The translations under genes and the position numbers were made by a program. Of a DNA stretch of 64,000 bases, positions 10,769 to 54,111 are shown piece by piece (the stretch's first letter is position 1; every line of letters starts with the position of its first letter). The stretch comes from Eledone cirrhosa. Taxonomy: Eukaryota. The notes beneath the pieces were generated by a model. That model was given only the letters and a program-made list of their open reading frames with translations. It made no database searches and was not told the DNA's origin. The stretch lies in NCBI GenBank assembly GCA_964016885.1, contig OZ024740.1, positions 392,336,001 to 392,400,000 of the forward strand, written 5' to 3'.

Positions 10769-10770
<2 letters not shown>

Positions 10771-11120
10771 AGGTTTGTCCCAAAAGTAAGGGTATTGATT
10801 TTCCTATGTCCAACTTGGTAACACAGCATCTCGTTGACGTATATAGGCATATTGGTTATACCTTTGGCTGCACGTACATGCTTCTTTCAACATGATCAAT
10901 TGAGTCAGTGGTGAGTTATTGCTGTTTATTTACTGATGTGTTTATAACCTCTGTTATGTTTCCAATGCTGGAAAGTATCAAACAATGGTACATGATCAAA
11001 TTATGTGTGAAACTCAACCGAAAGTTTTATAATTCTTTATCACAAGCTTATGGAGATCCCACTCTCTAGTGAAGTAAGGTTTTTTTAAGTGGTACAAAGC
11101 ATTCAAAGAGGGCTGAGAAA
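10769..11120 (+). mobile_element. Mariner transposon 5' remnant
   Basis: Starts after (TA)n with CAAGGTTTGTCCCAAAAGTA; decayed HTH coding (MIKLCVKL...QAYGD...KWYKAFKEG). Confidence 0.65.
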
Positions 11121-11427
11121 ATGCTGGAGAGGTACTTAGCTAAGAGTAAGCCATTGTATTGAGCTTTTGTAGATATGGAGAAGGCCTTTGACAGGGTCCC
11201 ACATTCTGTAATCTGAGGGGCACTTAGGAAGATAGGTGTAGCTGAATGGCTTGTAAGGTGGTGCAACCAGCAAAGTGAGAATTGGTAATGAGTACAGTGA
11301 TGAATGTGAAGTGCAAGTAGAGTCCATCAGAGCTCAGTCTATTCTGTTTATCAATGTCCTTCAGGCCATGACTGAGGAGTTTAAAACTGGCATTCCTTGG
11401 GAACTCCTATTTGCTGATGACCTAGTC
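11120..11427 (+). mobile_element. Old RTE LINE RT fragment, left half (split by hAT)
   Basis: AFVDMEKAFDRVP...EEFKTGIPWELLFADDLV; the reading continues at 17184+ as LVLIAESIELEAKFQAWK. Confidence 0.85.
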
Positions 11428-11763
11428 CAGTGGTCGCCAACATGGGTTCTGTGGAACCTTGGGGTTCCGTAAAACAAACTCCGGGTTCCTTAAAAAAATA
11501 AATATTTACATTACCATTAATATTTTGGGTTTTCTGAAAAAGGTGCAAAGAAAATGCCAAAGGTGCAATGTATAAATGAACAAGTATTATTGTAGTGTAC
11601 ACAGGTTCTCCACTCCAATTCGTGGAAAACACTACTTTCAGTTTCTCACTTGAATTAGCAGAAAAACACTGTTCTGAGATTCGTGAAAATTGAATACTTT
11701 CAATTTCACATCTATTCTTGGAAAGACAAAGTTTTCTGAATTCCGAGAATTTGACTACTACTG

Positions 11764-14700
11764 ATAATACACTAATTGTGGGAGACCCTTCCCTACGAGT
11801 GTCGACAAATGCCCAAAACTCTCAGTTGGTACCATCAATGTCGGCTCAATGAAAGGAAGAGCAGGAGAAATCGTAGAAATGCTAGAGCGAAAGGAAATTG
11901 ATGTATGCTGTGTGCAAGAGACTAGATGGAGAGGAGAGTCTGCCAGAGTCCTGGTAGGAAAGAGTCGGTGCTACAAATTTTTCTGGGTGGGAAATGACGA
12001 TGGGATGGGGGGTGTAGGTATACTACTAGCTGACAAGTGGGTAGATAAAGTAATCTCAGTGTACAGGGTAAATGCAAGAATCATTAAACTCAGACTAGTC
12101 CTGAATAAAACAATTACCACAATAATATCGGCTTACGCACCCCAATCGGGGCTGCCAGACGAACTTAAGGATAGGTTTTACGAGTCCCTAATGCACACTA
12201 CTGCTCTAACAGACGACAATGACTTCCTAATCATCGCAGGAGATTTTAACAGACACGTAGGTAAACACTGCGACGGCTTCAATAGAGTACATGGAGGCCA
12301 TGGGGTTGGCACAAGAAATGAGGAAGGATTCAGACTTCTAGAATTCTGCGACGCCAATGACATGTCGATATGTAACACAAACTTTTAAAAACCCGACAAC
12401 CACCTGATCACCTATAGATCAGGGGAGCACTCCAGTCAGATAGATTTTATCCTCACCAGAGGACGTGACAGATGGACGGTCGTAAACACAAAAGCCTTCC
12501 CTAGTGAGGAATGTACATCCCAACATAGCTTAGTTGTCAGCGACCTCACGGTCAGAACTAGTCAAACCTGGAAACAGAGGCCAACCTGGAGAAGAAAGAT
12601 CTGGAAGCTGAAAGTCCCCTCAACCAGTAACAGATTTAAAGATATTTTACTCAACGCCTACGACAGTAAAGAAGAACAGATAGAGACATTCAATGTAGAA
12701 GAGCACTGGGAGTTCCTAAAAAATAATTTACTAGAGGCGACAGATGAGGTCTGTGGCTGGAGTAAGACCTCAAGCAGGAGGAGAGTGACTTGGTGGTGGA
12801 ACAATAAGGTAGATGAAGCAGTTAAGGCCAAGAGACAGGTATGGAAAGAATGGAAGAACGGGGGGAGCAGGGTACATTACGTAGAGACCAAGAGGGAAGC
12901 TAGGCGACAAGTATACTTAGCTAGGAGAGAAGCAGAGGATAGAAAATTCAAGCATGTTTTGCAACGTGAGGACCAGAAACAGGAGGTATTCAAGATTGCG
13001 AGGCAGTGTGTCAGAGATAGTTGTGATGTCATTGGAGAGAAGTGTATCCGGAATGATAAAGGTGAGCTTGCCCTCACAAGTGCTGAGAAGAAAGATGCAT
13101 GGAAGAGTCATTATGATAGATTACTAAATGAGGAGAATGCATAGGAAGAAGAGACCCTACCCCAAGTAGACCCTATAGAGGGGCCAGCAGTACAAGTCAG
13201 CAGCAGCGTAGTAAGTAAGACAATCAAAGATATGAAGATCGGGAAGGCAACTGGTCCATCGGGTATAGCTGCCGAGATGCTGAAGGCATCTGGGTCTGTA
13301 GGTCACACTATAACCACACGTATTGTTAAGCAGGTAATACTAGAAGGTGTCATACCAAAAGATTGGTGCAGTAGCATCATTGTCAACTGCTTCAAAGGTA
13401 AAGGCGATGCACTAGGTAGAGGAAACTATAGAGGTATAAAGTTGATGGACCAGGTCATGAAAGTAACAGAAAGAGTTATAGCACAGTTGATTAGGGACCG
13501 GGTGAAAATAGACGAGATGCAATTTGGGTTTGTACCAGGAAGAGGCACCACTGATGCCCTCTTCCTTGTGAGGCAATTACAGGAAAAGTACCTAGCTAAA
13601 AGTAAGCCACTCTACTTGGCATTTGTTGACCTTGAGAAAGCCTTTGACAGAGTTCCACGTGCTGTAATCTGGTGGGCTCTTAGAAAACTAGGAGTAGATG
13701 AATGGCTTGTGAAAGCGGTACAAGCCATGTATAGGGGAGCAGTCAGCAAAGTTAGGATTAGCAATGAGTATAGCGAGGAATTTAGCGTACAGGTCGGGGT
13801 CCACCAGGGCTCAGTTCTTAGCCCCCTCCTATTCATCATAGTCCTGCAGGCAATAACGGAGGAGTTTAAGACCGGATGCCCATGGGAACTCCTGTATGCT
13901 GATGACCTCGCACTCCTAGCTGAATCTATGGTAGAACTAGAGAATAAATTCCAAACTTGGAAGCAGGGACTAGAAAGAAAGGGTCTCAAAGTCAACATGA
14001 CAAAGACTCAGGTCCTTGTAAGTAGACGAGAAAACAGAACCCAGATCCCCTCAGGAAAATGGCCTTGCTCAGTATGTAGGAAAGGTGTAGGTAGGAACTC
14101 CATTCTCTGCCCCAAATGCAAACAATGGGTACACAAGAGATGTAGCAGGATCTCAGGAAGCTTAATTAAGAATGTAGGCTTCACATGCAGCAGCTGTGCT
14201 GAGACAGCAAGCAGCAAACAGCCACAGGAAACAAGTACCACCAATCTCTGGGAGGGCTCTGTAGAAACAGTAGACAGCATCTGCTACCTAGGTGACCGAA
14301 TTAGCAGCGGAGGTGGGTGTTCAGAAAGTACAATAACTAGGGTAAGAACGGGATGGAAGAAGTTTAGGGAACTACTACCACTGCTAGCTGCAAAAGGCTT
14401 CTCCCTCAGAATGAAAGGCAGACTGTATGATGTGTGTATCTGAACAGCAATGTTGCATGGTAGTGAGACCTGGGCGCTGAAGGTGGAAGACTTACGTAGA
14501 TTAGAGAGAAACGAAGCCTGCATGCTCCGATGGATGTGTAACAGTAATATACGTGAACGACAAAGCATAAATGAATTGAGAGAGAGACTGAGCATAAGAG
14601 GTATCAAATGCTGTGTGCAGGAGAGGCGGTTGCGCTGGTATGGACATGTGATGCGTATGAAGGATGACAGCTGCATAAAAAGGTGCAGAGCACTAGAAGT

Positions 14701-15164
14701 TGATGGAAATCGCGGAGTGGGGAGACCCAAGATGACCTGGGATGAGGTGATAAAAGCCGACCTTACCCAATTACACCTCTCAAAGGCAATGACACACGAC
14801 CGTGACTTCTGGCGTCACGCAGTAATACTGAGTACCCGACCTCCCATGGGTACAAGCTGAAGCATATAGACAATATGCCCCCACACCCTCCACCGCAAGG
14901 TGGCCGTGGAGGTGCCACGGCAAAAAAGCACCCAGCCCACACTGTAAAGTGGACGTGTAGGCGCCACGAAAAAGCACCCAGCACTCACTGTAAATGAGGT
15001 TGGTGTTAGGAAGGGCATCCAGCTGTAGAAATCAAGCCAAATCAGTTCCTGTATGAGCAACGCATGGTCAGCCGACCAGACACTGCCCACAACAGGACAA
15101 CCCGTCTAACCCATGCTAGCGTGGAAGAACGGACGTAAAACGGTGATGATGAGGATGATGATGT
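11764..15164 (+). mobile_element. Younger RTE (BovB-like) LINE: APE endonuclease + RT + Cys-rich finger, single frame with 3 nonsense codons
   Basis: ORFs 11849, 12785, 13232 and 14450 are all in one frame; VQETRW, SAYAPQ, GDFN, QIDFIL, VHQGSVLSPLLF, YADD; (GAT)n tail; candidate TSD CTACTG at 11758-11763 and 15165-15170. Confidence 0.95.
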
Positions 15165-17030
15165 CTACTGCAAAGAAGCTGAAGTTAGATACCAGCAGTA
15201 AGGTTAGACAGTGGTGTGATGATTATGTTAGATATGGATTTCAAAAAGCTGACACTAAAAAAGATACACCAGATCAGCCCATGTGTTTGCTATGTTCAAA
15301 AGTTCTATCAAATAGCTGTTTAAATCCTGCAAAACTTAAAAGACACCTTCATACTAATCACACCAATGATGAAAGCAAGTCACTGGAATACTTTACTTCG
15401 CTGAAAAACAACATCAAAAAATCACAAGCTAATGTGTATGACTTGTTTTGTAAAAAGTCAGATAGAAATAAAGCTTTAACAAGAACATCTTTTGAAATTT
15501 CACATTTGATTGGTAAAAACAAGAAACCATATACATTAGGAGAACAGTTAATTCTGCCAAGTATAAAAATTGCTACAGAGAATCTTTTTGAAAGCTGCAG
15601 TATTAAGGACAAAGAAAAATTAAGCCAGTTACCATTGTCAGCAAATACCGTAAAAAGAAGGATAATTGATATTTCTTCTGATATAGAAAATCAGATACTA
15701 ACTGCACTAAAGAAAAGCACATGTTTTGGTCTGCAAGTGGACGAAACTACGGATATTAATAACAAGGCTCAATTAATTTGCTATGTACGGTTTGTAAAAA
15801 ATTATTAGTAGAAGAGTATTTGTTTTGTCTGGTATTAGACATCACAATTAAAGGTCAAGATATATTCAATAAAATTGAAGAGTATTTTTAAAAAAATGGT
15901 GTATCTTGGAGCAAGTTGACTTCAATAACAACAGATGGAGAAGCTGCAATGACTGGTAAAAATTCTGGTTTGATTGCAAAAATTAAAGAACAGAGCCCAA
16001 TTGTATTTCAAATCATTGTATGATTCATTGAGAGGTTTTGTGTTCAAAAAAATTCAAAGACAGAGATGCTCAAATATTAAATGACCAGCTGAAAGACATT
16101 GTCAACATTATCAATTTGATCCATGCAAGAGCAAAAAATTCTAGAATGTTTGAATCTATTTGTGAATCTTCTGGAAGTAATTATAATAGATTGTTATTGA
16201 ACAATGATGTGCGTTGGCTGTCTTTTGGGGATGCTATGAAGAAAGTTTTTGAACTGAGAGAAGAAATAATAGTTTTTATAAAAAAACAGAATGATGAAAG
16301 AGCAAGTGTATTAGAAACCAATGAATGGAATGTGCAACTCGCTTATTTAGTAGACATTTTTGGTGAACTGAACAAACTAAATAAGTGTCTTCAGGGTAAC
16401 AATGCAGATATTTTTACTTCAATCAATTTTATTACATATTTTCAATCAAAATTAAACATCTTTATAAAAAGAATTGAATCATTACTTTCAAACCTTGAAA
16501 TAGAGCTTAAAAAGAGAGAAGATTTTGACTCCAGCAATCTAAAGAAGATTATTCTTTCTCATTTAAATGTGCTTTCCACAAGTTTTTCAGATTATTTTGA
16601 CTTGATGGAAAAAGATATTGTTAGCGGAAATTTATGGATAAAAAACCTGTTCACCGAGATCGAGCAGTTAGTGTCAGAAAATGACACTGGAAATTGTAAA
16701 AATTTACTACCTGCACAATGCTTACATCAGTTGATGGATTTGAATTCAAACGAAGACCTAAAAGTGATATTCGAAAGCAGAAAGAAAGAACTATGGATCG
16801 ACTTATTCTTGATTGGGTAGTTTAATGAAATCAGCCAACTTGCATTGAAATATTTGACTTTATTCCCATCTAGCTACTTGTGCGAAGGGTTTTCGCAGTT
16901 GGTAGAAATCTGCACAAAGAAGATGAATAAACTGTCAGCAATTGACGAGTGTATGAGACTGGCATTAACTAGTGTTGAACCTCGATTTTCTAAACTCACT
17001 GATGAGGCGCAGCAGCAGAAAAGCCACTAG
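15165..17030 (+). pseudogene. Disrupted hAT/Buster (ZBED5/SCAND3-like) transposase
   Basis: BED finger CLLC...LKRHLHTNH, LQVDETTD, ITTDGEAAM, HCMIH, VRWLS, FPSSYLCE; stops and frameshifts split it into ORFs 15113-15808, 16038-16820 and 16845-17030. Confidence 0.92.
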
Positions 17031-17183
17031 TTAATTGTGTTCGATTACATACACACGCATGAAACACTAAAATAAATAAATACTTTATTATTTTTTTTTG
17101 AAAAGTTTTGTATTGTATAGGTTCTGTGAAGAATTCAAAATATTTAGAGGGTTCCTCGGTTTTAGAAAGGTTGGCGACCACTG

Positions 17184-18040
17184 ACCTAGTCCTTATAGCT
17201 GAATCCATAGAGTTAGAGGCAAAATTTCAAGCATGGAAGAAGAACCTAGAGTTGAAAGGCCTAATAATAAACTTAGCAAAGATGAAAGGCTTAATAAGTA
17301 GGAAAGAGGACAGGAGGATGGTATCATCAGGGAAATCGCCTTGTTTGATTTGTGAGAAAGGGGTGGGCAGAAATAAGGTGCACACAGTGTATAAGAGATG
17401 TAGTAGGATTGCAGGCAGGCTGACGGAAAAGATAGACTTTTTATGCTACAGATCCAGAGAAGTAAGCACTAAGAGCACACATGAAATAGATTCCTTCAGC
17501 TTCCAGGGAGGCTCCTTAAAAGTTGTCAACAGCTTTTGTTGCGTAGACAATCAAATAAGCTGTGGGGGAGGATGCCTTGAAAGTGATAGCTGGAAGAAGT
17601 TTAGAGAGCTGTTACCTATGCTGACAACAAAGAGCTTTTTTCTCAGAGTGAAGCATAGACTGCATGCGAACTGTAGTGCTACATGTCAGTGAAACATGCG
17701 CCTTGTCTACAGAAGACTTGCAGAGGCTGGAAAGAAACGAATTGAGTATGCCCCAATGGATATAGCATGGAAAATGGGCGTTAAACGATGATGATGTAAT
17801 ATTAGTGTGCATGAACAACGTAGCGGAAGCAAACTGAGGGAAAAACTTGACATAAGAAAAATTGGAGGTAGTGTGCAAGAGAGAAGACTGCATTGGTATG
17901 GACATGTGATACGTATGGAAGATATCAGCTGCATAAAAAATACAGAGAAACCCAGTAGCTGGGATCTAGGAAGACTTGGGATGAGGCTGTGAAGACTGAC
18001 CTTAAAAACTAAATCACACAACAGAAATGACAAAGGATTG
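17184..18040 (+). mobile_element. Old RTE LINE, right half
   Basis: Continues the RT after the hAT TSD; WKKFRELLPML, QERRLHWYGHVIRM. Confidence 0.85.
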
Positions 18041-18270
18041 CAAAGGTTGTTGCTATGTTGTGGTGATGCAAATAATTTGAGTATGGACATGCAGAAATAG
18101 GGATAGACTTCATTAAAAGAACTTCTACTGACAAATATTTTCTTTGGTTCCTCATAGGGCATCTAATTCTTCATTTACGGATTATTTTACCATCTTGGGA
18201 TATTGTTGTAAGCTGACATTTGTATTCATTTGTTATTTATTTTTAATTACGTTTCTTTCTTTTTAACTAG

Positions 18271-18475
18271 CGCCCTGGATTGTATTATGTAGATAACAAT
18301 GGAGAGCGAATGAGTAATGAAATGTTCTCTGTTGGGTCTGGTTCCACACATGCTTATGGTGTTATGGATAGTGGGTACCGTGAGGACTTATCAGAAGAAG
18401 AAGCATATGAATTGGGGAAGCGAGCCATTTACCATGCAACCTACAGAGATGCTTTCAGTGGTGGTGTTGTCAATT
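18271..18475 (+). CDS. PSMB5: PSMB5 exon 6 ([13 protein letters not shown]...[12 protein letters not shown]...[10 protein letters not shown])
   Basis: CTAG acceptor, GTGAGT donor; SVGSG and RDAxSGG motifs; overlaps track ORF 18280..18651. Confidence 0.97.
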
Positions 18476-18794
18476 GTGAGTATCACATTTTTTATGTAAC
18501 TATTAGGTTTGCTATTGTTTATGGCAAAATATTTAACTATACCTTTCTATGGCCATGTGGTTTAGAAGTTTGCCTTCAATCCTCTGGTTCTAAGTTCAAC
18601 CCTGTTGCACATCACCTTGGGCAAGTGTCTTCTACCATTACTTCGGGTTGACCCAAATCATGTGAGTAAAACTGGGTAAACAGAAACTGCAGAAGCCTGT
18701 TGGATAGACTGTAACTGTTCTTGGCTGATGGGTTTAATCCTCAGCTGCTTTGGTGCCTTTACTTTCTATTTTAAACCTATTTTTACCATACAAG

Positions 18795-18947
18795 TCATCA
18801 TCACTGTTTTACGTGCATTCTTCCACGCTAGCATGGGTTAGGCTGGTTGTCCTGTTGTAGGCAATGCCAGATCAGGTGACCATGTCTTGTTCATGCAGAA
18901 ATGATTTTGGCTTGATTTCTACAGCTGGATGTCCTTCCTAACACCAA
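18795..18947 (-). mobile_element. RTE 3'-end fragment
   Basis: Reverse complement of about 15000-15152. Confidence 0.8.
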
Positions 18948-20009
18948 GTCTGAGTGTTTTTTTTATGGATTTGTTGTAGCTGTTGTTTTTACAGCTAGAT
19001 ATTTTTTTCTAACTGCCAATCACCACCATCACTATTACTTCTACGACTATAGCCATTTAGCTGTAAAGTAAACTAGACAAGCAAACTACTTTACCTAAGG
19101 TATTAAGCAAATAAAAGCTAGAATCTGAAGAATTTAGCAGTAGTCTTCCTTGGTAACACATTTAATAAAGTTGACAAATTCCAACAATATCATATCTATG
19201 TGGTATAAATTATGAATTGGTATAAAATTAAATCGAGTTGCACTTGATTTAATGATTGCTTGACCTGCTAAAAATAGCACTTAAATCTTCCTTAAATTAT
19301 ACACTACAATATTAAAAAAGGAAGGATACATTGGATGATGTAGTCAAGAAGGAAAATGACAGTATGCTTATGATTGGAATCCTTTGATTATAGGTCTGTT
19401 TGTTCAAGGCCAACCTTGTTCTAAACAACATCTCCATATAGATTCAGTTGCTGCCAGTAATTGTAAGTGACTTATAATTAGTATATGAACTCTGAAAACT
19501 AACTACAATTTATGCTGTTTTTCTAGCATTGCCATTGTTTTATAGTTTACTAGCTATATGATATAATTTGTGATTTTTAAGCCATCAGATTGTATACTGG
19601 AATTACACTGTTCGTTACTGATTTAACTTTTTTGATACCTATCTGCCTAAGATCAACCCTGGTTCCATGATACAAATATTTTCATCCTAAATTGTTTATA
19701 TTTAAATAAAAACCTTACATCATAAGAACTGTTTAAGTTTTATGTCAGATATCAGCTTATTAATCTGGTGTTTGGAGCATAAGAAAGTTTCATCATCATC
19801 ATCATCATCATCATCAACGTTTAACGTCCGTGTTCCACGCTTGCATGGGTTTGGACGGGGGTTTCTTACATAAAATTATGATGGAAGGTTTTTAGGTAAA
19901 TATAAACACTATAAACAAACTGCTCAATATAAAAAAAAAAACGGGCGGTTTTGGGTGGTTTGGTATCAAAAGGGTTAAATTTGCTACAATTACATGTGCC
20001 ACTAATAGT

Positions 20010-20205
20010 GGTTTCTGATTTAGGCACAAGGCCAACAACTGGTGGAAAGGGCAAATCGATTAAATCGACCCACGAGCATTACTGGTACTTTATTTTATTG
20101 ACTCCGAAAGGATGAAAGGCAAAACCAACCGTGGTGGGATTTGAACGTAAAGGGCCGCAACTCTATGCTGCTAAGCATGATATCCGACGCTCTACCGATT
20201 CTGTC
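20010..20205 (-). mobile_element. SINE A, diverged
   Basis: GGCACAAGGCC...ACTGGTACTTTATTTTATTGACTCCGAAAGGATGAAAGGCAAA...GGATTTGAAC. Confidence 0.75.
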
Positions 20206-20985
20206 TTGTACCACTAATAATAAACACTGCATCACATTTAACCTATGAGGAAGCATTTAACTCAGCCTGCAAGAAATAGCAGCCAAAACTTTCTCATATC
20301 ACATCCTACTATCATAAAACTGGACATGAATAATGTACTCTTTTTCTTATTCATTGGAAACATAGGATGCTCATAGCTGCAAAGATTTTCATGATAGGTC
20401 CACTCAGTCATAGTTGAAAGGAAAAGGGTCCTTAACTCCTGATGGAGCGCTGTACTGATGATACACTGCATGTCTTGGGCATTTTAAACCTGGTGCAGCT
20501 TATCCTTCTCCAGGTTTACTGAGTCCACACTTCATTTATAAACTCTGGACGGATGAAAGGCAAAGTTAAGTTGAGTGCAGTGAGCCAGAATAAATACCAA
20601 GACACTCTAATGACCTTGCTAATGCAGTGCCTTATCAGTGTTGACCTGGGGCTACTCAAAACCAGCAACTGCAACAAAAGAACAAATTTAAAAAAACGCT
20701 GCAATATTAAATTGTTTAAGGGGAGATAATGTCAACGAATTTACTTTTTTCATCTTAATTTCTTGATGTAAAACAATTAACATAATTTCTTGCCTTATTC
20801 CATATTCTACATTTAATGACATTGTCCTTCACTGTGTGTTGGAGACAGTCAGACATCTACCTTTCTAGCAGTTTCAGTACTTGTCTGGATTTAAGAGTTT
20901 ATTTGTTTTTTCATCTGAATCAATATATTTTATATTTATCATCTATATAACTGAACAATTATTATTTTGCTTTTTATTTCTACAG

Positions 20986-21092
20986 TGTATCACATGAAGA
21001 AGACTGGATGGGAGTTTGTATCGCATACTAATGTACTAGATTTGCATTACAAGTATGAAGCTGAGAAAAAAAATAGTCAGGGAAGCAAATAA
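20986..21092 (+). CDS. PSMB5: PSMB5 exon 7 (LYHMKKTGWEFVSHTNVLDLHYKYEAEKKNSQGSK*)
   Basis: TACAG acceptor, phase 1, TAA at 21090-21092. Total spliced CDS 849 nt = 282 aa. Confidence 0.95.
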
Positions 21093-22692: not shown

Positions 22693-23022
22693 CATCATTT
22701 CATTTTACGTCCGCTTTTTCCCTGTTTGCAAGGGTGGGATGGGAACTGTCCCACTTGATTTCTACAGCTGGATGCCCTTCCTAACCAACCTCATTTACAG
22801 TGAGTGCTGGGTGCTTTTTTGCCGTGGCACCTCCACGACCACTTTGCAGTGGAATGATATGGACCCCAGTCCCTATCATCTCATTTCTACAGCTGAGTAA
22901 ACTGGAGCAATGTGAAATAAAGTGTCTTGCTCAAGGAAACAACACATCACCCGGTCTGAGAATTGAACTCACAACCTTTCGATTGCAAGGCCAATGCTCT
23001 AACCACTAAGCCATGTGCCTCC
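22693..23022 (-). mobile_element. SINE family B, second full copy
   Basis: Near-identical reverse complement of 7180-7516. Confidence 0.85.
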
Positions 23023-23364
23023 ATACAATACAGAACACTACAATAAAATGATGTTATTAGTTTAATCATAATCTTTTAAAGCTCAGTGTGTGGTCATGCT
23101 CCTTCGTGATAGAAATCTACGATATAGAATTTCTTCAATTGAAATTTACAATTCAGTATTCGAAATAGTTTCAATTGCGTCTTGATGCAGATAATTTTTT
23201 CAATTTCACCCACAATTACGCAAAAAATAGATAAAACTCAATATTTTACGATTTTTTTCTCTCATTTAAACTGCTGAACTCTTTCTACTACCATTCAAAA
23301 TCTATACAACTTCATACTTTCTGCTACTTTCTCTTTCCAAGCTTGATGGTGATACTGTCCGTTC

Positions 23365-35551: not shown

Positions 35552-35736
35552 AATTGTTTCTACTTTTGGCACAAGGCCAACAATTACCCAGTGTATTACT
35601 GGTACATTATTTTTCGACCTCGTAAGGATAAAAGGCAAAGTTAACCTTGGCGGGATTTGAACTCAGAATGGCAAGGGCCGTAACTCTATGCGTCAAAGCA
35701 TGGCGTCCGACCCTCTACCGATACTGCCAATCCACC
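35552..35736 (-). mobile_element. SINE A, full length with (ATT)n tail
   Basis: A box TGGCAGTATCGG, B box GAGTTCAAATCC, core, tail; (AAT)n at 35497-35552. Confidence 0.88.
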
Positions 35737-35767
35737 AATAATAATAGTAATAATAATAATAATAATG

Positions 35768-38700
35768 CTTTCTTTATTAACCACAAGGGCTGACACAAAG
35801 TATAACATTAAGGACAATACAGGACAATACAAATGGGCATTTCTGCGTGTAAAAAAAAAACAGTGTGACAAAAGGAAACAATGAAAAATTCCCAAAAGGG
35901 GGAGACCTCCGAGGGTTGCTCGTGGAGATAGCCCACAAGAAAAGCCACGGTTACCCTGACCACTAGGGCAAATGCCCTCTTCTAGTTTTCCTCCTACAAT
36001 GCTACAAGCATTGCTCAAGGTAGGCCCATTCACACGGGCCATTCTTGCCTCTCTAACCCACCTTTCAACAAACTGGCTGTAAGTCAGCACTTCCCTCTCC
36101 ACCCTGATTTTCCTCTTCAGGTGAAACCTGAAAAAGTTAATGAGGGCGTCACCGAAGAGGAAAGTACCGGTCTTCAACCCTTTCAGACGTGTCCACCATA
36201 CGATCTCTTTTAACATGGCCACCAGACAGATAAAAACTGCCTGCCCTTCTCGGCTAAAGGAAGGCGGCGGGGCAATCTTCACGATGGACTCAGCTGATAG
36301 CTGGATCCGTTTTACACGTGACAGCAGGTATTCGGCATAAACCCACAAGTCAGCAATGCTCGGACACTGGACGAGTGCGTGCAGGACGGTTTCATCGCCC
36401 TGTGCGCATCTCAGACAGGCTTGGCTGACGGCACTTCCATGCCTGTAGAGTTTATCCCGAACTGGCAAGGCTCCTCGGTAGCACTGCCAGGCCAGTGATT
36501 TCTGGAAGTTGTCCATGGGCCCCGGCCCGAAAGTTCTCCCGAAGAGATTGGCTAGTTGGTTTTCGTCGACACCTAGAGTCTCCTCAAGGACGTCGTTGCT
36601 CTTCCACTAATCCTCTATAGAAAGCCAAGGTGGAGTTTCCAGCGATTGTATTGCTCGACTGGTCGAGGGCTGTAAGCGCCTGAAGACATTCTAGTCTCCA
36701 AGCGCTTCCTCTCGGTCTTTGCTTGACCCAGGACTGCAACTCCGCCAAGGAGACAAGCTGGGGAAACATGTGTCTAGCAAAGGGTGACCACACCTGATCA
36801 CCGTCGAGGAAGAGGTGGAGATGCCGTAGCCTGAGCGCATGTCTGCGCATCATCAGCCACGGTATGCCCAGCCCTCCGCGTAGCGGGTGTTGACAGCAGA
36901 TGGACCGCCTAACCATCGGAGCACGTCCCTTCCACAAAAAGCGAAAGAGCAAACGCTCCAGTGCAGTCAGGTGAGGCTTAGGACAAGGCACGACGGTCAG
37001 GCGGTAGTAGATGACGGACGCGATGTACGCATTCGCCACTTCTGCTCGACCTTTCAGGGATAGCTTCTTCTCGGCTCATACCTGGGTGAGAGATAACACA
37101 TTGCTCGTGACCTCCTCCCAGTTTTTGTCCGTCTGGAGGTCCGGACCGAACCAGACCCCTAGCAATTTAACCGGCCCGTCCGTCCAGCGCCCGATGACGC
37201 TGTTGGGCGGCATGGACCTGCCTCTCCAGGTGCCGTGTTGCAGGCCTACTGATTTTTCCTGGTTGATCATTGCTTCTGTCACTACCTCGTATTCTCTTAG
37301 TGTGGTGCCGATTGCCTCGATATGTTTGGTGTTCGACACCACTACGGTGATGTCGTCTGCATAAGCTGACACTGTTCTTCCGCATCCTAGTTCACGTGGG
37401 ATCCCCCTCAAAGTCTCCAGTTTGTGCAGTAATGGCTCAAGAGTCAATATGTACAACAAGGACGAGAGAGGACATCCCTGGCGGATCGAGCGCATGATGT
37501 TGAAAGTTTCCGAAAGGTGACCGTTCACTATCACCACAGAGCAGATGTCGCTGTGCATGGCAGCAATCCAGCCCCTGAAGACAGGCCCAAAGCCAGCTGC
37601 TCTTAGGACTGCTGCCAGATAACGATGGTCGACCCTATCGAAAGCTTTTGACTGATCTAAATTGATCAAAGACCCACCCATGCCAGATTCCATAGCAACC
37701 CTCTCTATGATGTATCGCATGAGGTGGAAGTTGTCGTGGATGGATCTGTCTGGAATGGCGCATGTTTGCGCCTCTCCCACCAGACCACCAACGACAAGCG
37801 CCAACCTCTTTGCTAGCACCTTAGCCAAAATCTTGAAGTCTGTGTTTAGCAGAGTTATGGGCTTGAAATTTTCTATGTTATCCCCCTTGTTCGGATCCTT
37901 TTTCAGCAGCGCCACCGCTGCTCGGCTCACAGAGCTGGGAATTCTCTCGTTCTGCTGCCAGTTGCAGTAGACGTCTGCCAAGAGGTCTTCGAACAAGTCT
38001 GGCATATATATGTAAAATTCGTAGGGCAGACCATCCAAACCAGGCGATTTTCCCATTGTGCAGCTAGTCATTGCCTCCCGTACCTCAGCAGCTGTTATCG
38101 GCCTTTCGCAACACTCCGCCCCAGTGGCCGAGAGCTGCGGCAGTCCGTCGAGGTAGGAACTGAAGTCCATTCCGCGATGCGGCCCGCCATTGCCCCCGAA
38201 TAGCTAAGCAAAGTGCTGCTGAAAAGCCGCACACATCTGCCCGGGATCGAGTATCATGTGCCCGTCGTGGTTCGCCAAAGACCGGATCGTGGCTTTGTTG
38301 CCACGACGCTCCTCCGCCACTCGGGCCCATTGAACGGCTTTTGTCCCCTATTATCTGAGAGCACGCACCCTAGCTCTGACAATACAGCCTTTGTGCTTAG
38401 CGTTGAAAAATTGGTCGAGAACCAATTTCGCCGCAAGCACGTCGGTCGCGATGCCTTTACTAAGCGCCTCGTCTAATTTCTTAACTAGATTTCCTTCTGC
38501 TCTATTTTTCTCTGTTACTAGCGCTTTACTAAACCTAATGGACTCTATTCTAATCTTTTCATGGAAAACCACCATTTGGTGTTGACGATGGCCCCTGTCA
38601 AAGCCGGCTTAACTAAATCGCTAATCCGGTCTCTGTAAGCTTTGCGCGCTGTTAACGACGCGTTTAGTTTCCAGTAGCCGGGTCCCTGTCTATGAAGCCT

Positions 38701-39560
38701 ATCTAAGTCAACCACACAGATCACGAATTTGTGGTCCGTGTAGCTGACTATCTTGAATTGTGGACAGCCTATGCTAGACCTATCTATTTCCCTACAAAAT
38801 ACTCTATCTAGATATGATCTGGATGGCCCGATACGGTTTGTCCAAGTCCACATTGGCACATTCGGGAAATTCAATCGGTACCTGTCCGACAGTTGAAAAC
38901 GCCTGAGTAGGTTTGTGAGGCTTTTACACCTTCCTCCCCTATCCGCTAATACCACACAATCCCAGCGTGCATCTAAGATCCCGTTCCAGTCGCCACTAAC
39001 ACTAGAGAGCGGGACGTTCCAAGAAAGGTCTCCAGACGCCGGAAGAATTCAGGCCGTGCTGCTCCTGTTGGGGCATAGGCGGCCACTAGCCTGAAAGCTT
39101 GTCCTTGTCCGCTGGTCACCAGTACCACCAACTTACCCTCTGGGTCCAAGAAGATCCAGACTTGTCTGGAACAACACAACCCCCCCCCCCCGATCCGGGA
39201 CGGCTTGGTGATGTGTACACCTCGTAGCCGCCGAAAATGGGTGCCAATGCCTGTGCCTCAGAGATTCTGGTCTCGCTGATGGCCACCACATCTATGTTTA
39301 GCGACCTGAGATCGTTCAGCAGGTGGCCCTGCTTCCAAGACGACCCCAGGCCACGTGCATTTATGCTACCTATTCTGAGAGAAGCCATGTTGGCTAGGAT
39401 AGGAGGAAACCAAGTGAGAGGGGAGAGGTACAAAAATTACCTGTGGCTCTTGTTTAGGAAGGAGGTGGGTGATCCATCCCTCCGACCATGTGTGGGTTTC
39501 TCCACGAGAATATCCGTGAATATTCTTTTGGTGATGTTCCCTCGGTAGTCTCCAATTGAT
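35768..39560 (-). mobile_element. Tx1/L1-clade LINE, ORF2 nearly complete but frameshifted
   Basis: ORF2 start MASLRIGSINARGL at 39388; ISETR, AAYAP, SYLDR, TDHK endonuclease motifs; KSPGLDG, LDQSKAFDRVDH, RQGCPLS, YADD RT motifs; CLRC...ETVLHALVQC zinc knuckle; AATAAA (35773-35778) and (ATT)n tail. Confidence 0.93.
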
Positions 39561-44319: not shown

Positions 44320-44780
44320 ATGGAACCCTCTGTGTTCAGAGAACGGGAAGCCACCTGTGAGACGGGGGACCGGCTGGGACTCAGCCCAGTAGACGTCCCA
44401 CCTCCTTCTCCCACTGCTGACGTCAAGTCCCCCAAAGCATCTGGGATGCCACTTGCAGCGACACTTTCTCCAGCCGCAACCTAGTGCAGTCTGCGACTAA
44501 CCCAGGTTCTGATGCACGTCGGGCTGATGAGACCAAACTCTCCAAATACCGGTCGTTCTCCGACACGTTTGCGGTCGTATCCTTGGCAGTGGAGACTTCT
44601 GGTGTCCTCGGCCCTAGGGATACCTCCCTACTCACCACAATAGGTGCTGAGCTGGCCAGCCGCAGGTACGAGCCTCGCGAGTTGGAATGGCTCTTCCAGC
44701 GCATCTCTCTTACCATCCTCCGGGGAAACGCCTTCTCCATTCTATCCGCCAGGGCTGTCGGGAGACCAGCGCGTGGGACC
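44320..44780 (+). mobile_element. CRE-clade non-LTR retrotransposon 3' fragment (restriction-like endonuclease)
   Basis: WDATCSDTF...KLSKY...AVETSGVLG...FQRISLTILRGNA; lies within a decayed RTE-type 3' end (about 43950-44830). Confidence 0.8.
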
Positions 44781-45502
44781 CAATTTGCTCACCATACGGA
44801 GAGATGGGGAGGGCCAGAGAGATGGAGGCGATGACAGTGGGAGTTCGACTGACTGATTCTTGTAGCATTCATTTTCCGTTGCAACATTCGTGATCTACCT
44901 TATATAACCTACAGGTTTATCTACAGGGCCATTTTCGCCACATTCGCCCACCTTTCAGCGAATTTACTGGAGTGTAGCACCTCCACCCTTATCTTCCTTC
45001 TGAAGTGGTATTAATAGCTAAAATAGATAGCTGTCCAGGAAGAAACACAACGGACGATGGAAGAAGAAAAAAACACAAAGAAAGAAAGAAAAAAACGACA
45101 TACCGATATGGAACGGGAAAAATACGAAGACGGCAGCACACATATGTGTGGTTAGTAACCATAGGAAAGGTTAATAAAAGTGGTTGGACATAAGTTCTGA
45201 AATTGTATTAACAAGACGGGAAGAAAAAGTCGACTGGTCAGTTAGACGGCCAGATCGTATAATGAGGAAACAAAGGTTGAACGGAAGTTGAGTAGGTAGG
45301 ATGAACAAGAACGGATGGAAAGGAGGAGTAAGAGAACTGAGAGAGAGGGAAGAATAATGGTATATAGTAAGAGAGAAAGAGAATCAGAAAGAAGAAAAAG
45401 AGAGGTCACAGCAGTAAAATAATGTAGAATTAAAAATGAGGTTGTGTGGTTACAAATAAATATTATTAAAAAAACCCCCCAAAACACGAGAGTGAAAACA
45501 CG

Positions 45503-45543
<41 letters not shown>

Positions 45544-45907
45544 TACTTGGGGAGGGTCATATTTGTGTAATATTGCCAGAATTAATAGCAGAACACACTC
45601 ACTGTTTGGTTGGTTTTCGCTTTTCGCTTCTGTGTCTTTTATATCGGTAATCTAATTTATTCGGTCCTCAATGTTGCCATTGACTGACCAGCGGTCAAAA
45701 ATAATACAGATACAATATAGACACAAACACATATATATAGTTTATCAAAGTTCTTTCGTTGCACATCTGCAACATCGTCAGTGGTGCTATTGTTTCCTCC
45801 CGTTACATTGTATTTTCTATGCCATCTATATTTAGTCTGTTTATATATTTATTTATTTGTTTATTTTATTTTGTCTTCTTTGCGCATGCGTTTGCGTGTG
45901 TGTATAG

Positions 45908-46218
45908 TGCAGAAACATGACAACATACATAGGCGAGACAGCTCGTAGCATAGGTGAAAGGATAGACCAAAACTGGGGGGGGGGGGACTAAAAGGACGAA
46001 AAAACGGGTCAGTACTATACGAACATGCCAGACAACAACACGGCGGTAACATAGACAACATAGAAATTAGAATAATATCTAAACATAGAAATGACCCAGC
46101 AGATAGGCAAATCAGAGAGGCCAGTGAAATAGAACTTAGAAGGCCAAGGCTAAACAGAAAGAATGAATGGAATAACAACAACACCCAAACAAACAACACT
46201 GACCTAAGAGAAGTATAA
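45908..46218 (+). pseudogene. GIY-YIG endonuclease C-terminal remnant
   Basis: TYIGETARSIGERI (G12-run frameshift) SVLYEHARQQHGG...RQIREASEIELRRPRLNRKNEW; absent from the ORF track. Confidence 0.85.
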
Positions 46219-46474
46219 ATAAATAAATAGATAAATAAATAAATAAATACATACACAAGCACAATAACAACAAACACATATAAACACACACTAGTAAAGA
46301 TAGAATACATTAACCAATACACAGTCACCCAATCACGAACACACATCAAACAAAACACTATACACACACGCAAACGCATGCGCAAAGAAGACAAAATAAA
46401 ATAAACAAATAAATAAATATATAAACAGATTAAATAAAGATGGCGTAGAAAATACAATGTAACGGGAGGAAACA

Positions 46475-46528
46475 ATAGTACCACTGACGATGTTGCAGAT
46501 GTGCAACGAAAGAACTTTGATAAACTAT
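46475..46528 (+). ncRNA. Hammerhead-like motif (mirror copy 45737-45790, minus)
   Basis: CTGACGA-T-GTTGCA gatg TGCAAC-GAAA-GAACTT; stem II perfect, stem I weak. Confidence 0.55.
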
Positions 46529-46768
46529 ATATATGTGTTTGTGTCAATATTGTATCTGTATTATTTTTGACCGCTGGTCAGTCAATGGCAACATTGAGGA
46601 CTGAATAAATTAGATTACCGATATAAAAGACACAGAAGCGAAAAGCGAAAACCAACCAAACAGTGAGTGTGTTCTGTTATTAATTCTGGCAATATTACAC
46701 AAATATGACCCTCCCCAAGTATAACAATATTTGTTTCGACACACAATTTCATCTAAAAAACCTCGCAA

Positions 46769-46839
<71 letters not shown>

Positions 46840-46842
<3 letters not shown>

Positions 46843-47046
46843 GGGCGGTAGAAGCATTTCTGAATTGGAGATGTCAAATTTGTTCAATTTAGTAGCACTC
46901 TAAAATGGTCAGAAAACTTCGATATGCGATAAACATAACATATACATAAATTGTAACGCATATACAAATAAATGTGAGTTTTGGCAGTTTGGGGGAGGAA
47001 AATATAATTAAGGGCGGGGGCATGCCCCTACCCAGTTCTACTGCCC

Positions 47047-47049
<3 letters not shown>
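46840..47049. mobile_element. MITE inserted in (TA)n
   Basis: TIRs CAGGGGCGGTAGAA / TTCTACTGCCCCTG. Confidence 0.75.
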
Positions 47050-47104
<55 letters not shown>

Positions 47105-47151
47105 AAGGAAAAGCGAAGTAGTTTCAGATGTTCAAGTCCTTTAATAATAAT

Positions 47152-47225
47152 GCTGTGATATATATTTCAATGGCGACACTGGCCACACTGTTCTGTGTGC
47201 GAGTGTCGTGACATCATCAGACAGC
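47152..47225 (-). ncRNA. Type-I hammerhead ribozyme, mirror copy
   Basis: Reverse complement of 48803-48876 with one substitution in stem II. Confidence 0.8.
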
Positions 47226-48802
47226 TTGTTACATAATAAGGTTATGTTTCCGAGGCAATCCAAATTGAATCGACATGGGAACGGATGAAATGCGTGCTTT
47301 TGGGTTTCTCACCCGTTCCCCTGTGAGTACCAATTCACCCCCACCGGTCTGCGCGTGCGCATGTCCGAAGGAAGTTGACCATTAGCTACCGCGGATTTCA
47401 ACGAAATTCGCTTAGTCAGTTCACCTCTCAGTCACACAATGGCCCGTACCATAGTTTACTGCTACCCATCTCGACTGTGGTAGTCAGTCGAAAGCCAGAG
47501 GGGATGGAGAGTGTTAGTTTTTACAGGTCATAATACTACCTCTCACCTAGCGTGGACAGTACGACTGACCATCAACTCAAAGGGAAAATAAACTTAATTC
47601 TAGGTATCATGGTTTTACATTGTAAGTTAAGAGTGAGAGTTTGAAATAAAAATTAAAGTCCTAAATCAAGTATCAGAAATTATAAATGAAACAATTAAAA
47701 AATTAACAATTAGAAATTAAAAGTTAGAAATTTTTTTCAAGTGAGAATTCGGATTGAGGTGAGTAAAAAAAATTATAGATTGAAGTGAGTAAATAATATG
47801 GAGAGAGCTGTTTAAGTAAGAAGTTTTGAGAGGGGTTCTAGTGTCACAGTTACTATATCGACATATTGAACGACAGTGCCGTACATTAGAACGGAGGGTA
47901 AGCTACAGCATTCAAGGCATTAGTCAATCTGGTACACAGTCATAATTTCCATCACATGGAACAATACCAAAGAAAAACATACATAGAAGAAAAAATGCAA
48001 AAACACAGAGTACATATATGCAAAATGATCCATATGATTGTCAATCTGTCCATGTATAGATTGAATTGAGGGGGCTTCTGTTCAAATGCGATTTGGTGCA
48101 GGGAAATAGGGGTTTATCTTATTTTTTGTTTCCGTGTATTTATCCTGCCGAAAGTTACTATTATGTCCGTCCAGTTTCAGGGGTTTCCATCCCCATGGTA
48201 GAGGGAATTTCCGGGGCAGCTCATGGTTGGTTCCTCTCTTCTCCACCATATCGGTTACATCATAGAGCGCTCAACTAACTGGAGCTAAATTATTAGGGTA
48301 AATATTGATGCAATTCAATTCAAGCACTCAACGTACTTTTTCCACATAGGAGTGACGGAGTAAATATCGAATAAGGAAAAGCGAAGTAGTTATAAAGTAC
48401 TTACAATGTAAAACCATGATACCTAGAATTAAGTTTATTTTCCCTTTGAGTTGATGGTCAGTCGTACTGTCCACGCTAGGTGAGAGGTAGTATTATGACC
48501 TGTAAAAACTAACACTCTCCCACCCCCTCTGGCTTTCGACTGACTACCACAGTCGAGATGGGTAGCAGTAAACTATGGTACGGGCCATTGTGTGACTGAG
48601 AGGGTGAACTGACTAAGCGAATTTCGTTGAAATCTGCGGTAGCTAATGGTCAACTTCCTTCGGACATGCGCACGCGCAGACCGGTGGGGGTGAATTGGTA
48701 CTCACAGGGGAACGGGTGAGAAACCCAAAAGCACGCATTTCATCCGTTCCCATGTCGATTCAATTTGGATTGCCTCGGAAACATAACCTTATTATGTAAC
48801 AA

Positions 48803-48876
48803 GCTGTCTGATGATGTCACGACACTCGCACACAGAACAGTGTGGCAAGTGTCGCCATTGAAATATATATCACAGC
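48803..48876 (+). ncRNA. Type-I hammerhead ribozyme, intact core
   Basis: GCTGT-CTGATGA-[CGACACT..CACAC agaaca GTGTG..AGTGTCG]-GAAA-TATAT-ATC^ACAGC; predicted cleavage after 48871. Confidence 0.8.
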
Positions 48877-48999
48877 ATTATTATTAAAGGACTTGAACAT
48901 CTGAAACTACTTCGCTTTTCCTTATTCGATATTTACTCCGTCAATCCCATGTGGAAAAAGTACGTTGAGTGCTTGAATTGAATTGCATCAATATTAACC

Positions 49000-50595
<1,596 letters not shown>

Positions 50596-50652
50596 TTTGA
50601 TCTCTTTCTTAATATATTTATATATATATTAACATATTTCATTCGTAATCAC

Positions 50653-50740
50653 GCGTATCACGAGTATCGCAAATAACCAGCTCGGAGCCTTAATTGATTT
50701 CGATTAGCTCGACTCAAAAATCAATTTGCTCATCAGACGC
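50653..50740 (-). ncRNA. Degenerate hammerhead in a further pLTR fragment
   Basis: GCGT-CTGATGA-GCAAAT...ATTTGC-GATA-CTCGTGAT-ACGC. Confidence 0.45.
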
Positions 50741-50940
50741 AAGAGATTAAAATCAGATATTCATGTCGTTGAGTGACTGCACATTTCGTAATGTATATAT
50801 AATCAATGTATGAAAAGGAAAACAACATATTCTTCGTTCATATGATACGAACTTGCGCCAACATATTTGATTTTGCAGTTTACTTTATTTGATTCAACAA
50901 TATTCATTCTTTACAGGACAGACACACAGACATTGTTATA

Positions 50941-51388
50941 CAGGGTGGTCCGAAAGTCTTGTCACCCCTTATCACATATTGTTTTAACTTTCATTCCCGC
51001 CGAGGTTAACTTTGCCTTTCATTCTTACGAGGTCGATAAAATAAAGTACCAGTAATGCACTGGGATAATTACTGGCCTTGTGCCAAAAGTAGACATAATT
51101 ATTTTTTGTTTTAATAATATAATATATAATATCATTAATTATAATATATAATAATGATAATAATATAATTTTCTATTTCAGAGCTCCTACAGTTTGAAGG
51201 GAAGCTGCTTGCAAGTGTATGGACACATGATCGTGTGCATGCTGGCAAGAGCATGGAGGATGTGCGACATGACTTCACTGCAAGATTCGGCAAACCAGCT
51301 CGTCCGAAGAAGATGCTACTGCGATGGGAACATAAACTGTTTCTCATTACTTTTAGGTAGGGGGTGACTAGACTTTCGGACCACCCTG
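50941..51388 (+). mobile_element. Tc1/mariner deletion derivative with nested SINE A (50995-51102)
   Basis: 29-bp TIRs CAGGGTGGTCCGAAAGTCTWGTCACCCCT, TA TSD; residual HTH-like coding (VRHDFTARFGKPARPKKMLLRWEHKLF). Confidence 0.85.
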
Positions 51389-52512
51389 TATATATATTTA
51401 GTTATAGAAGACGTGTATACACTCACACACATGTATGTATAAATATCTTTCGCCGACGCCTATCAAAATGCACTACAGCATTTCCCCGGCCGAGTTACAC
51501 ACTTCCTTGTCACTCTTGTCGATACGTTTGCATTCAATATGTAACATTTTGTGGAACGACAAGAGAGCAAATAGCTATATTCTTGAAAAATTCTTGCTAC
51601 ATAAGAGGAGCACAACATTCATATGAAAGTTACTAAAATCCGCAAAATATTTCTCCACAATCAGCCACAAAATGCCCTACATCGAGTTAGAAGATTATTG
51701 CTGCGCTTAAAATAAAGTTAAGCCTGAGGCAATTAAAGTTTGATTCATAATCTTGGAAGCACATACGATTCAATCGGTAAGCTTGGTGTAGAGAGTGCTT
51801 TCATTGGACTGATCGTTTCGAGAAAAAGAGATTGAAGTATAAGAATCTGCTGGGCTCTAGAGCAAACCTTTATTAATGAGCGCTCATACGTGATTCTCCC
51901 CCTACCACACACACAAAGCTCAATTTATAGTATTCTATTTTGTCTTTTTCCTGAGATTAAAACTTATTCCTAATGTTTTAAAATAATTAAAGATGTCTAT
52001 ATCAGTTATATCTCTTCCTCACCCATGTTGTCTTGTAATACACATCTTAAGAACTTATTGAAATTTATCATTTCATCTTAACTAACTTATTCTAATCTTT
52101 ACATTGTCTTTTTACATTTTAAATACCTAAAAATTGCTTTTAAATTGTTTTACTTTGGGAGGGTCATGCTGCCAATAAAAAGCACACGCACCTATTGGTT
52201 TTTCACTTCAATTTATTACAAATTTTCGGTTGTCTGGTTCTATAACCGGATGGTTGTTTATATATTGTCAAAGCTCTTTCGTCACACATTCTGTGACCTC
52301 CTCAGTGACATATTTGTTATTTTAAAATTAACTTACTTATAAATAACCTTTTTAACAGATTATTTTCCGTGATGTACAGCCATATGACACTTATTTAATT
52401 ATGTCTTTTAGCCTGTAGAAATTGACTAGACAAATAGTTAACTACACAGAATTAGGTACAAAATAGAAGTTTGAAGAAAAAATGCACATAAATTTTACCA
52501 AAATTCTCTTAG

Positions 52513-52595
52513 TCTCTACCACCGGTGGTTTCGTTCTGCTTTTTGGATATACCCAGTCTTGGATAAATCCACGAGGCTTGGAACTCATCAGGAGA
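52513..52595 (-). ncRNA. Type-I hammerhead ribozyme, intact core
   Basis: TCTC-CTGATGA-GTTC...GAAC-GAAA-CCACCGGTG-GTA^GAGA; stem III is the perfect palindrome ACCACCGGTGGT. Confidence 0.78.
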
Positions 52596-52876
52596 TACCC
52601 CAGACTGGACTAAGTTTCTTCTACCATGATCCTCACCAGAAATGAATTCAAAATGGCTAAGAACTATCACGTGGCTAGCGGTCAAGGCAGAAAGTTTGTG
52701 ATTGGTGCCTGTCGGCGAGTACGCTGGTTGCTAGAAAGCGCAGCCGAATACTGCCTACAAATTTACTCAACCTTACGGGAGTATATATTAAATTCAAAGG
52801 TATATATATATACACTTAGATATAGTCACAGACACATCCACATCTACGTGGATTTATATTTAGTAGGTTTGGAAAA

Positions 52877-52956
52877 GCTATCTGAAGCGCTATATCTTTC
52901 CATTGGAAATTCTCTGAATTTCCATTCATTTGATTAGCGAAACCGTCGGTCATGGC
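52877..52956 (+). ncRNA. Type-I hammerhead variant (A9 to C)
   Basis: GCTAT-CTGAAGC-GCTA...TAGC-GAAA-CCGTCG-GTC^ATGGC. Confidence 0.62.
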
Positions 52957-53097
52957 ACTAGAAGAGGTAAATATTTAAATCGTATTTTAATTTATTTAAA
53001 AGATTGTTTAATGTTTACTTGTTCCGCTCATATATGTATATATATAAAATAAAATAAAATAAATAAGTCAAATGTTTAAAATTTGGCTTCGTTTATT

Positions 53098-53152
53098 ACT
53101 GCTATATATATTTCGGTGACAGCCATCTTTGGCTGTGACCTCTTCAGGCAGT
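53098..53152 (-). ncRNA. Type-I hammerhead ribozyme, mirror copy
   Basis: Exact reverse complement of 53385-53439. Confidence 0.85.
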
Positions 53153-53384
53153 CCGAATTATTGTGGTAGAGACGAGTACACATGTTGTTGAGGTGTTTAA
53201 CTTTGTCAATACTCTGATATGCCCAGTTCCTGGTTGGATTGTTATTTCACTGAGGAACTGGAATCATATATGATTCCAGTTCCTCAGTGAAATAACAATC
53301 AAACCAGGAACTGGGCATATCAGAGTATTGACAAAGTTAAACACCTCAACAACATGTGTACTCGTCTCTACCACAATAATTCGG

Positions 53385-53439
53385 ACTGCCTGAAGAGGTC
53401 ACAGCCAAAGATGGCTGTCACCGAAATATATATAGCAGT
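53385..53439 (+). ncRNA. Type-I hammerhead ribozyme, intact core
   Basis: ACTGC-CTGAAGA-GGT.ACAGCCA aaga TGGCTGT.ACC-GAAA-TATAT-ATA^GCAGT; predicted cleavage after 53434. Confidence 0.85.
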
Positions 53440-54111
53440 AATAAACGAAGCCAAATTTTAAACATTTGACTTATTTATTTTATTTTATTTTACATTACTC
53501 CGTAGTAACCAAACCAACCTGCGCACTTCGTTGAGTGCTCCAATCTGCATACTAAGGTGTTGGTATACAACCAATATATACTCAATATATATATATATAT
53601 ATATTTCTATATAGTCTCCCGGAGTTTTTAACTGTTGGTCAATCAATGATAAACATTGATTGCCAGCTAAATTAACTATAGGGATATAAAATAAACGGAA
53701 GCAAAAACCAACCCAAACCAAACAGTGAGTGTGTTTTATTATATATTTCTGGCAATATTATAACAACATGACCCTCCCCAAATATAACAATATTTGTTTC
53801 AACACACGATTTCATATCAAAAACCTTGCAAAACAAATATATATGTACTAGCTGAATAATAATAATTCAACTATAACAATTATATAAAAATATAACAATT
53901 ATGTAAAATATATTTATTTAATATTGATTGTTTTTTGTAGTAATTTATATTAAAAGTCTGAAAATATTTTTATACATCTTACAATAATATTTATAAGATC
54001 ATTTATAAAATAACAATTATATAATCTAATTACATTACAACGATAAGTTATTATTAATATATATCATGTTTAACTAGAGTTATTAGAAGCGTTGCCTTAA
54101 AAAAATATTAA

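Follow-up and report, generated by a model that had tools for sequence, protein, structure and literature searches.

The 64-kb window analysed here (64,000 nucleotides of contig OZ024740.1 from Eledone cirrhosa) contains, at 53045-53492, a spacerless palindrome that is most probably a single non-coding insertion of the 3' end (pseudo-LTR, pLTR) of an EN+ Penelope-like element (PLE) into a TA microsatellite, in which a tail-less inverted copy is joined head-to-head with a tailed forward copy. The insertion is referred to below as E1, and its neighbours at 47093-49003, 45535-46771 and 49081-50487 as E2, E3 and E5.

An inverted-repeat search and base-by-base comparison placed the two arms of E1 at 53045-53268 and 53269-53492 (448 bp in total), with 0 nt between them. 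Pairing outward from 53268/53269 contains one mismatch in 224 pairs (53236 G / 53301 A; 99.6% identity) and, by base-by-base comparison from the centre, ends at 53044/53493. This bears out the sequence-only reading of the window, which had described a 448-bp spacerless palindrome with an identical hammerhead on each strand and this single arm difference. E1 is the sole non-microsatellite perfect palindrome in the window (arms of at least 15 bp, spacer of 0-6 nt). Sequence comparison identifies the left arm (minus strand) as an inverted, 5'-truncated copy of the element end that lacks the tail, and the right arm (plus strand), about one pLTR long, as a sense copy differing from the left only at 53301. 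The arms meet in the self-complementary centre CATATATG (53265-53272), the head-to-head junction, which in other copies is 2 nt shorter. Sequence and folding suggest a putative internal hairpin at 53276-53314 (+), with a 9-bp stem formed by 53276-53284 and 53306-53314; the 132-nt stretch around it folds no better than shuffles (z = -0.20).

The insertion as a whole is asymmetric. An unpaired 3' tail of about 92-94 nt (53493-53586, +) follows the right arm only, with no mirror image on the left, and carries TTACTCCGT at 53495 and CGTTGAGTGCT at 53529, both of which also occur in the sister element E2. TA runs lie at both ends: an interrupted run at 53030-53044 forms the left target site and a (TA)n run at 53585-53604 the right one, the TA at 53045-53046 being assignable either to the target or to the element. 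Neither the tail on one side, nor the TA runs at both ends, nor the three sister insertions within 8 kb had been noted from the sequence before. Classification as a MITE or Foldback DNA transposon, with symmetric terminal inverted repeats and a target-site duplication (TSD), is ruled out by the 92-94-nt one-sided tail that E1 has in common with its sister element. CTCA is present on both sides of E1, where both flanks are TA runs, and an 18-bp TSD was considered; it was rejected because the right-hand CTCA aligns with the element-derived tail of E2. A TSD is optional in PLEs.

Four inverted structures of like layout were found within 45535-53604, with spacers of 446 (E3), 771 (E2), 1080 (E5) and 0 bp (E1). 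In E2, E3 and E5 the left arm abuts a TA run, the tail is on the right arm only and TA runs flank the structure. The tail lies on the right-hand side in all four inverted insertions of this interval, an outcome with a chance of one in eight if sides are random. E1 and E2 align from hammerhead to tail (local score 100.5, compared with 59.9 +/- 7.3 and a maximum of 80 in 100 shuffles), have the same stem III and the two tail motifs in common (3 matches, 0 expected), and their inverted arms terminate within about 3 nt of each other. The distance from the cut site to TTACTCC, a motif occurring 8 times in the window, is 61 nt in E1, 62 nt in E2 and 64 nt in E5.

In E2, the minus-strand copy is long and tail-less and includes an internal arm-end plus tail (48291-48391), and the forward copy is short and tailed; hammerheads lie at 48808-48871 (+) and 47157-47220 (-). 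E5 has inverted arms of 90% identity and a 92-nt tail; its hammerhead is decayed, the palindromic stem III measuring 8 nt. E3 has 369-bp inverted arms, a decayed hammerhead near 46485-46518 and a tail of about 45 nt, together with a weaker GIY-YIG-like remnant at about 45926-46215. Further PLE-like pieces are located at 52130-52340 (-), with a hammerhead at 52305 (-); at 52515-52600 (-), with a hammerhead at 52591 (-) whose stem II is long and whose palindromic stem III spans 12 nt; and at 53588-53847 (+), where a 3' end like that of E3 has the TA run at 53585 in common with E1. An interpretation of the first and last of these pieces as two arms of one host element was rejected (57% identity, score 76.5 against a shuffle maximum of 75.5).

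At the protein level, a 94-residue frame of E5 at 50003-50284 (-) matched GIY-YIG clusters of a protein atlas with a score of 0.92, and HMMER (phmmer) with this frame returned 1990 relatives, including 720- and 759-aa proteins matched at their C-terminus. Read by eye, the long homologues contain what we take to be RT-like motifs followed by a Cys motif and then a GIY-YIG/CCHH domain, as in Neptune/Nematis PLEs. The E5 fragment itself has a Cys motif before GIY-YIG, like Neptune/Nematis, for which PMC8557442 describes this order as a feature. Pfam assigned no GIY-YIG family to the E5 frame and no family at E <= 0.01 to any of six long homologues, and a word-index protein search with the frame gave no match. 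An HMM built from 150 homologues of the frame matched only at 50003-50284, with no match in E1. The E1 arm contains no long frame and shows no coding similarity (Pfam, no family above cut-off for its two frames), E1 has no RT or endonuclease ORF, and its 3' end gave no alignment with that of E5 above chance (43 versus 36.4 +/- 6.1). With no coding similarity and a 3' end that does not align with E5, E1 is thus tied to PLEs by layout and spacing and not by protein: it has a hammerhead in a terminal repeat, an adjacent inverted 5'-truncated copy at its 5' end, a tail at one end only and an AT-rich/(TA)n target. E1 is classed here as a PLE-derived non-autonomous insertion, not an autonomous PLE.

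This layout has close counterparts among described complex insertions of EN+ PLEs. For Naiads, PMC8557442 reports (TA)n targets, a tail of 30-40 bp confined to one end and an inverted, 5'-truncated copy lying alongside. PMC3846280 describes rotifer pLTRs of 193-218 bp, one inverted pLTR bearing a tail; it also records palindromes of 18 and 38 bp at the 5' ends of pLTRs and numerous palindromes where inverted copies meet. E1 shares with these insertions the head-to-head inverted 5'-truncated copy, the one-end tail, the junction palindrome, the AT-rich or (TA)n target and an arm length near that of the rotifer pLTRs. It differs from them in having no ORF between the arms, a tail of 92-94 nt instead of 30-40 bp and no definable TSD, and its two copies are truncated at the same point, so that the entire insertion is one perfect palindrome. 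The tail-less inverted copy, the palindromic junctions and the opposite-strand hammerhead pairs are all known already for PLEs. Fully spacerless PLE palindromes were not found in a literature search by title and abstract opening that covered few subscription papers.

Each arm of E1 carries a type I minimal hammerhead, at 53385-53439 (+) with a predicted cut after A53434 and, as a mirror copy, at 53098-53152 (-) with a predicted cut site at 53103. Stem I is ACTGC/GCAGT (5 bp), the core is CTGAAGA, GAA follows stem II and H17 is A53434. Stem II (53397-53422) has 11 positions, made up of 10 pairs and one C.C mismatch, with a 4-nt loop, and stem III (53426-53433) is the palindrome ATATATAT. These helices agree with the earlier description of a 5-bp stem I, a stem II of about 10 bp and a palindromic stem III. 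The core is complete (C3-A9, G12-A15.1, U16.1, H17 and the three-way junction), and G10.1-C11.1, the long helix II, the short helix I and the palindromic helix III are those of the type I minimal class. An unpaired base between positions 9 and 10.1, which is a common but not a catalytic trait of this class, is absent from the E1 motif, in which G53397 pairs directly with C53422.

Strict scanning for hammerheads returned 3 matches in the 64-kb window, the two E1 copies and one at 52305 (-), and 0 in 20 shuffles; a relaxed scan gave 3 matches in the window and 1 in 10 shuffles. The 55-nt E1 motif folds with z = -3.09, and 0 of 200 shuffles folded as well. Rfam returned no match at the gathering score for the window and none at E <= 10 for the right arm. 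The exact 24-nt hammerhead pattern had 0 matches in metagenome contigs, and degenerate patterns matched 14 metagenome and at least 120 viral loci. These were dismissed as chance matches, since 2 of the 134 listed pass a loose hammerhead filter and none is arm-like beyond one 18-nt match.

Metazoan PLE minimal hammerheads, as described in PMC4209133 and reviewed in PMC6765202, likewise combine a long helix II with a short, 5-bp helix I, G10.1-C11.1 and a tiny palindromic helix III, and those of Schistosoma occur in opposite-strand pairs 100-700 bp apart, an opposite-strand pairing that E1 shares. The E1 motif departs from them in its helix II (11 positions versus 7-8 bp) and in having no unpaired base between 9 and 10.1, and its two copies sit within a perfect duplex. 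As part of the inserted element end, the hammerheads would be passengers of the pLTR.

The presence of an intact motif on each strand had been read as a switch, in which a transcript could form either a 224-bp duplex or the ribozyme as mutually exclusive folds. Folding of the full E1 hairpin gave -394.6 kcal/mol, compared with -314.7 kcal/mol with the hammerhead enforced, the duplex being more stable by 79.9 kcal/mol, and three sampled hammerhead pairs had a probability of 0.0 in a read-through transcript. In a single arm with its tail, hammerhead pair probabilities were 0.14 for stem I and 0.999 and 0.685 for stem II. Stem III was modelled at 0.0 kcal/mol as a monomer and -3.2 kcal/mol as a dimer, and each strand of E1 contains one sense ribozyme, transcribed after its antisense copy. 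The switch is therefore not supported; read-through from either strand is predicted to give the 224-bp hairpin rather than the ribozyme. The core nucleotides are nevertheless all intact and stem II reaches 0.999 in the single arm, as would be expected of a functional ribozyme/duplex switch or of a non-LTR retrozyme unit yielding self-cleaved or circular RNA. Against such a function stand the pairing of 0.0 in read-through, a stem I of just 0.14 even in the single arm with tail, a stem III that does not form as a monomer, the transcription of the antisense copy ahead of the lone sense ribozyme on each strand and the want of any head-to-tail repeat, and we regard it as extremely improbable. PMC4209133 reports that a single minimal PLE hammerhead shows no detectable cleavage as a monomer in vitro and low cleavage as dimers, so failure of a single-arm RNA to cleave would not be a valid disproof of the sequence-only reading.

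That reading had classed E1 as a PLE/retrozyme fold-back insertion; the fold-back derived from a PLE stands, and the retrozyme has to be dropped. Retrozymes are described as tandem repeats (PMC7229834; bioRxiv 10.64898/2026.07.22.740005). According to the same sources, non-LTR retrozymes resemble E1 in being short, non-coding, equipped with a type I hammerhead and likely PLE-derived, but they form head-to-tail repeats with canonical hammerheads and circular RNA, whereas in E1 a minimal hammerhead and a PLE-type tail go with a head-to-head arrangement. The window contains no direct repeat of the E1 arm, and E1 has a helix I of 5 bp and a helix II of 11 positions, compared with 6 bp and 4 bp with a loop-loop contact in canonical retrozyme hammerheads. 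E1 is not a retrozyme.

Given a PLE origin, we put the chance that the two copies were joined through dual priming of both target strands at slightly better than even. In this pathway, PLE protein acting in trans would nick both strands of the TA target, and each 3' end would prime reverse transcription on element RNA, one at an inner start site (53492) to give the tail-less arm, the other at an outer site (~53586) to give the arm plus tail. Two such cDNAs have the same polarity and could therefore be joined only via complementary ends. Both would halt at the short self-complementary (AT)n stretch, anneal through it and be filled in, and stopping at a self-complementary stretch would leave zero spacer; joins at two differing sites would give the spacers of E2, E3 and E5. 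We infer a natural palindrome in the parent at the E1 centre. PMC11167929 reports that PLE protein nicks and extends both target strands in vitro, that two RT start sites bracket the tail, and that hammerhead cleavage is not needed in vitro.

A PLE origin is also compatible with a single cDNA that folded back at the (AT)n site and self-primed a second strand, which stopped at the tail boundary; in a variant proposed in PMC3846280, self-priming occurs on an antisense template. Zero spacer and near-identical arms would follow directly from such copy-back, PMC3846280 interprets junction palindromes as self-priming, and the E2 junction contains an exact 8-bp palindrome centred at 48399, on the start of the forward copy. 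In E2 and E5, however, the tail-bearing copy is the shorter one and thus is not a plain fold-back copy of the tail-less cDNA. These arm lengths favour dual priming over simple copy-back, which an extra template jump could rescue, and the extension of both target strands by an active PLE in vitro (PMC11167929) also speaks against copy-back. We consider copy-back unlikely. The E1 copy, having no ORF, was likely dead on arrival.

E1 was further compared with contigs, as opposed to raw reads, from four of ten runs, X1, X4, X5 and X6, of which X1 may be the source sample; the comparison omitted 53025-53073 and 53464-53618, which hold both outer junctions of E1. A fold-back chimeric read that doubled one arm during library preparation or assembly could account for the zero spacer and the 99.6% arm identity, and no contig among those listed spans the whole locus. 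Such an artefact is nonetheless very improbable, since there is no reason to expect a chimeric fold-back to break off at a tail boundary shared with E2 and then return to unrelated flank. The duplication in E1 halts at this boundary, also the end of the E2 inverted arm, with unrelated flanks resuming on both sides; in addition, the arms differ at one base, and contigs in three of the four runs, under two organism labels, cross the centre.

The arms differ at 1 of 224 positions in E1, by 4 mismatches and 2 gap columns in 530 in E2, and at 7 of 369 positions in E3. The rate in E1 is not significantly below that of E2 (p = 0.68, with 5 events counted for E2) or E3 (p = 0.27), so the earlier description of the insertion as very young is plausible without making it exceptional among its neighbours. 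Arm identity would understate age if an older, spaced inverted insertion had lost its spacer, or if hairpin-mediated gene conversion had kept the arms alike. In run X1, two letters present in both arms are in fact uncommon in the family: another letter is shown by 323573 of 323804 depth units at 53238 and by 150922 of 152230 at 53376, and the C.C mismatch in stem II is common to both arms. A small young subfamily accounts equally well for the shared letters, however, and the arm difference rate matches that of the spaced neighbours. Long palindromes usually acquire central asymmetry and seldom lose it, which also counts against spacer loss. Loss of a spacer or conversion is on this evidence improbable.

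In X1, the summed depth over the arms was about 1e5-6e5, compared with 4.3 at 52060-52129; this ratio is not a copy number, and points to a high-copy family. A centre shorter by 2 nt (2 nt left out at 53266) was found in 17 contigs of X1, one of X4, one of X6 and none of X5, indicating that other copies, under two organism labels, match on both sides of the centre. X1 and X6 each have a single diverged contig whose end falls at the E1 centre. A joint of 53146 with 53385 in X1 may stem either from a further fold-back or from a short deletion; none of the 15 joints listed, out of 272, is an empty site. Because two organisms have contigs running across this centre, fold-back may recur there; the centre-crossing contigs fit many fold-backs at one site and a short natural palindrome in the parent equally well. 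As a tentative proposal, about which we remain doubtful, the (AT)n centre may serve the entire family as a fixed point of fold-back, where this high-copy PLE family keeps producing perfect, spacerless palindromes in more than one species.

Elsewhere in the window, the exons of a proteasome beta-subunit-like gene lie at 7768-20988 (+) (Pfam Proteasome, E 4.9e-17 for 18271-18648; motifs at 7768 and 20988). LINE-like and transposase-like remnants are found in its introns, and the E1 locus lies outside this gene, whose last exon is near 20988. Broken frames at 11768-14860 (+), 15110-16820 (+), 35686-39436 (-) and 44421-44834 (+) are similar to LINE reverse transcriptases, to a hAT-like transposase and to a restriction-like endonuclease; Pfam gave no family for the frame at 44421-44834 (+). 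An inverted pair of 336 bp and 96% identity, at 7178-7513 and 22693-23024, is 15 kb apart and has no TA-run flanks, and is more like a dispersed repeat than a PLE unit.

As a single locus, E1 matters little: it shows a known insertion layout with unusual clarity. Should its centre recur in many copies, junction statistics within the family could be used to test the way in which PLEs attach the inverted copy, which neither PMC11167929 nor PMC8557442 settles. Long double-stranded RNA might also arise from such insertions, if they are transcribed through. In the account of PMC5625713, octopus and frog have an exceptionally high share of near-perfect double-stranded loci, and PLEs are the one other heavily edited LINE-type repeat, in lizard. 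The palindromic Harbinger repeats and PLE copies described there as ADAR substrates are like E1 in being repeats that would self-fold to long double-stranded RNA if transcribed; E1 differs in being retroelement-derived and asymmetric, and is known here from DNA sequence alone. Should the (AT)n centre be a family-wide fold-back site, the copies of the PLE family would provide long hairpins, ready-made and in large numbers, and would document the joining of two PLE cDNAs as it occurs in nature.
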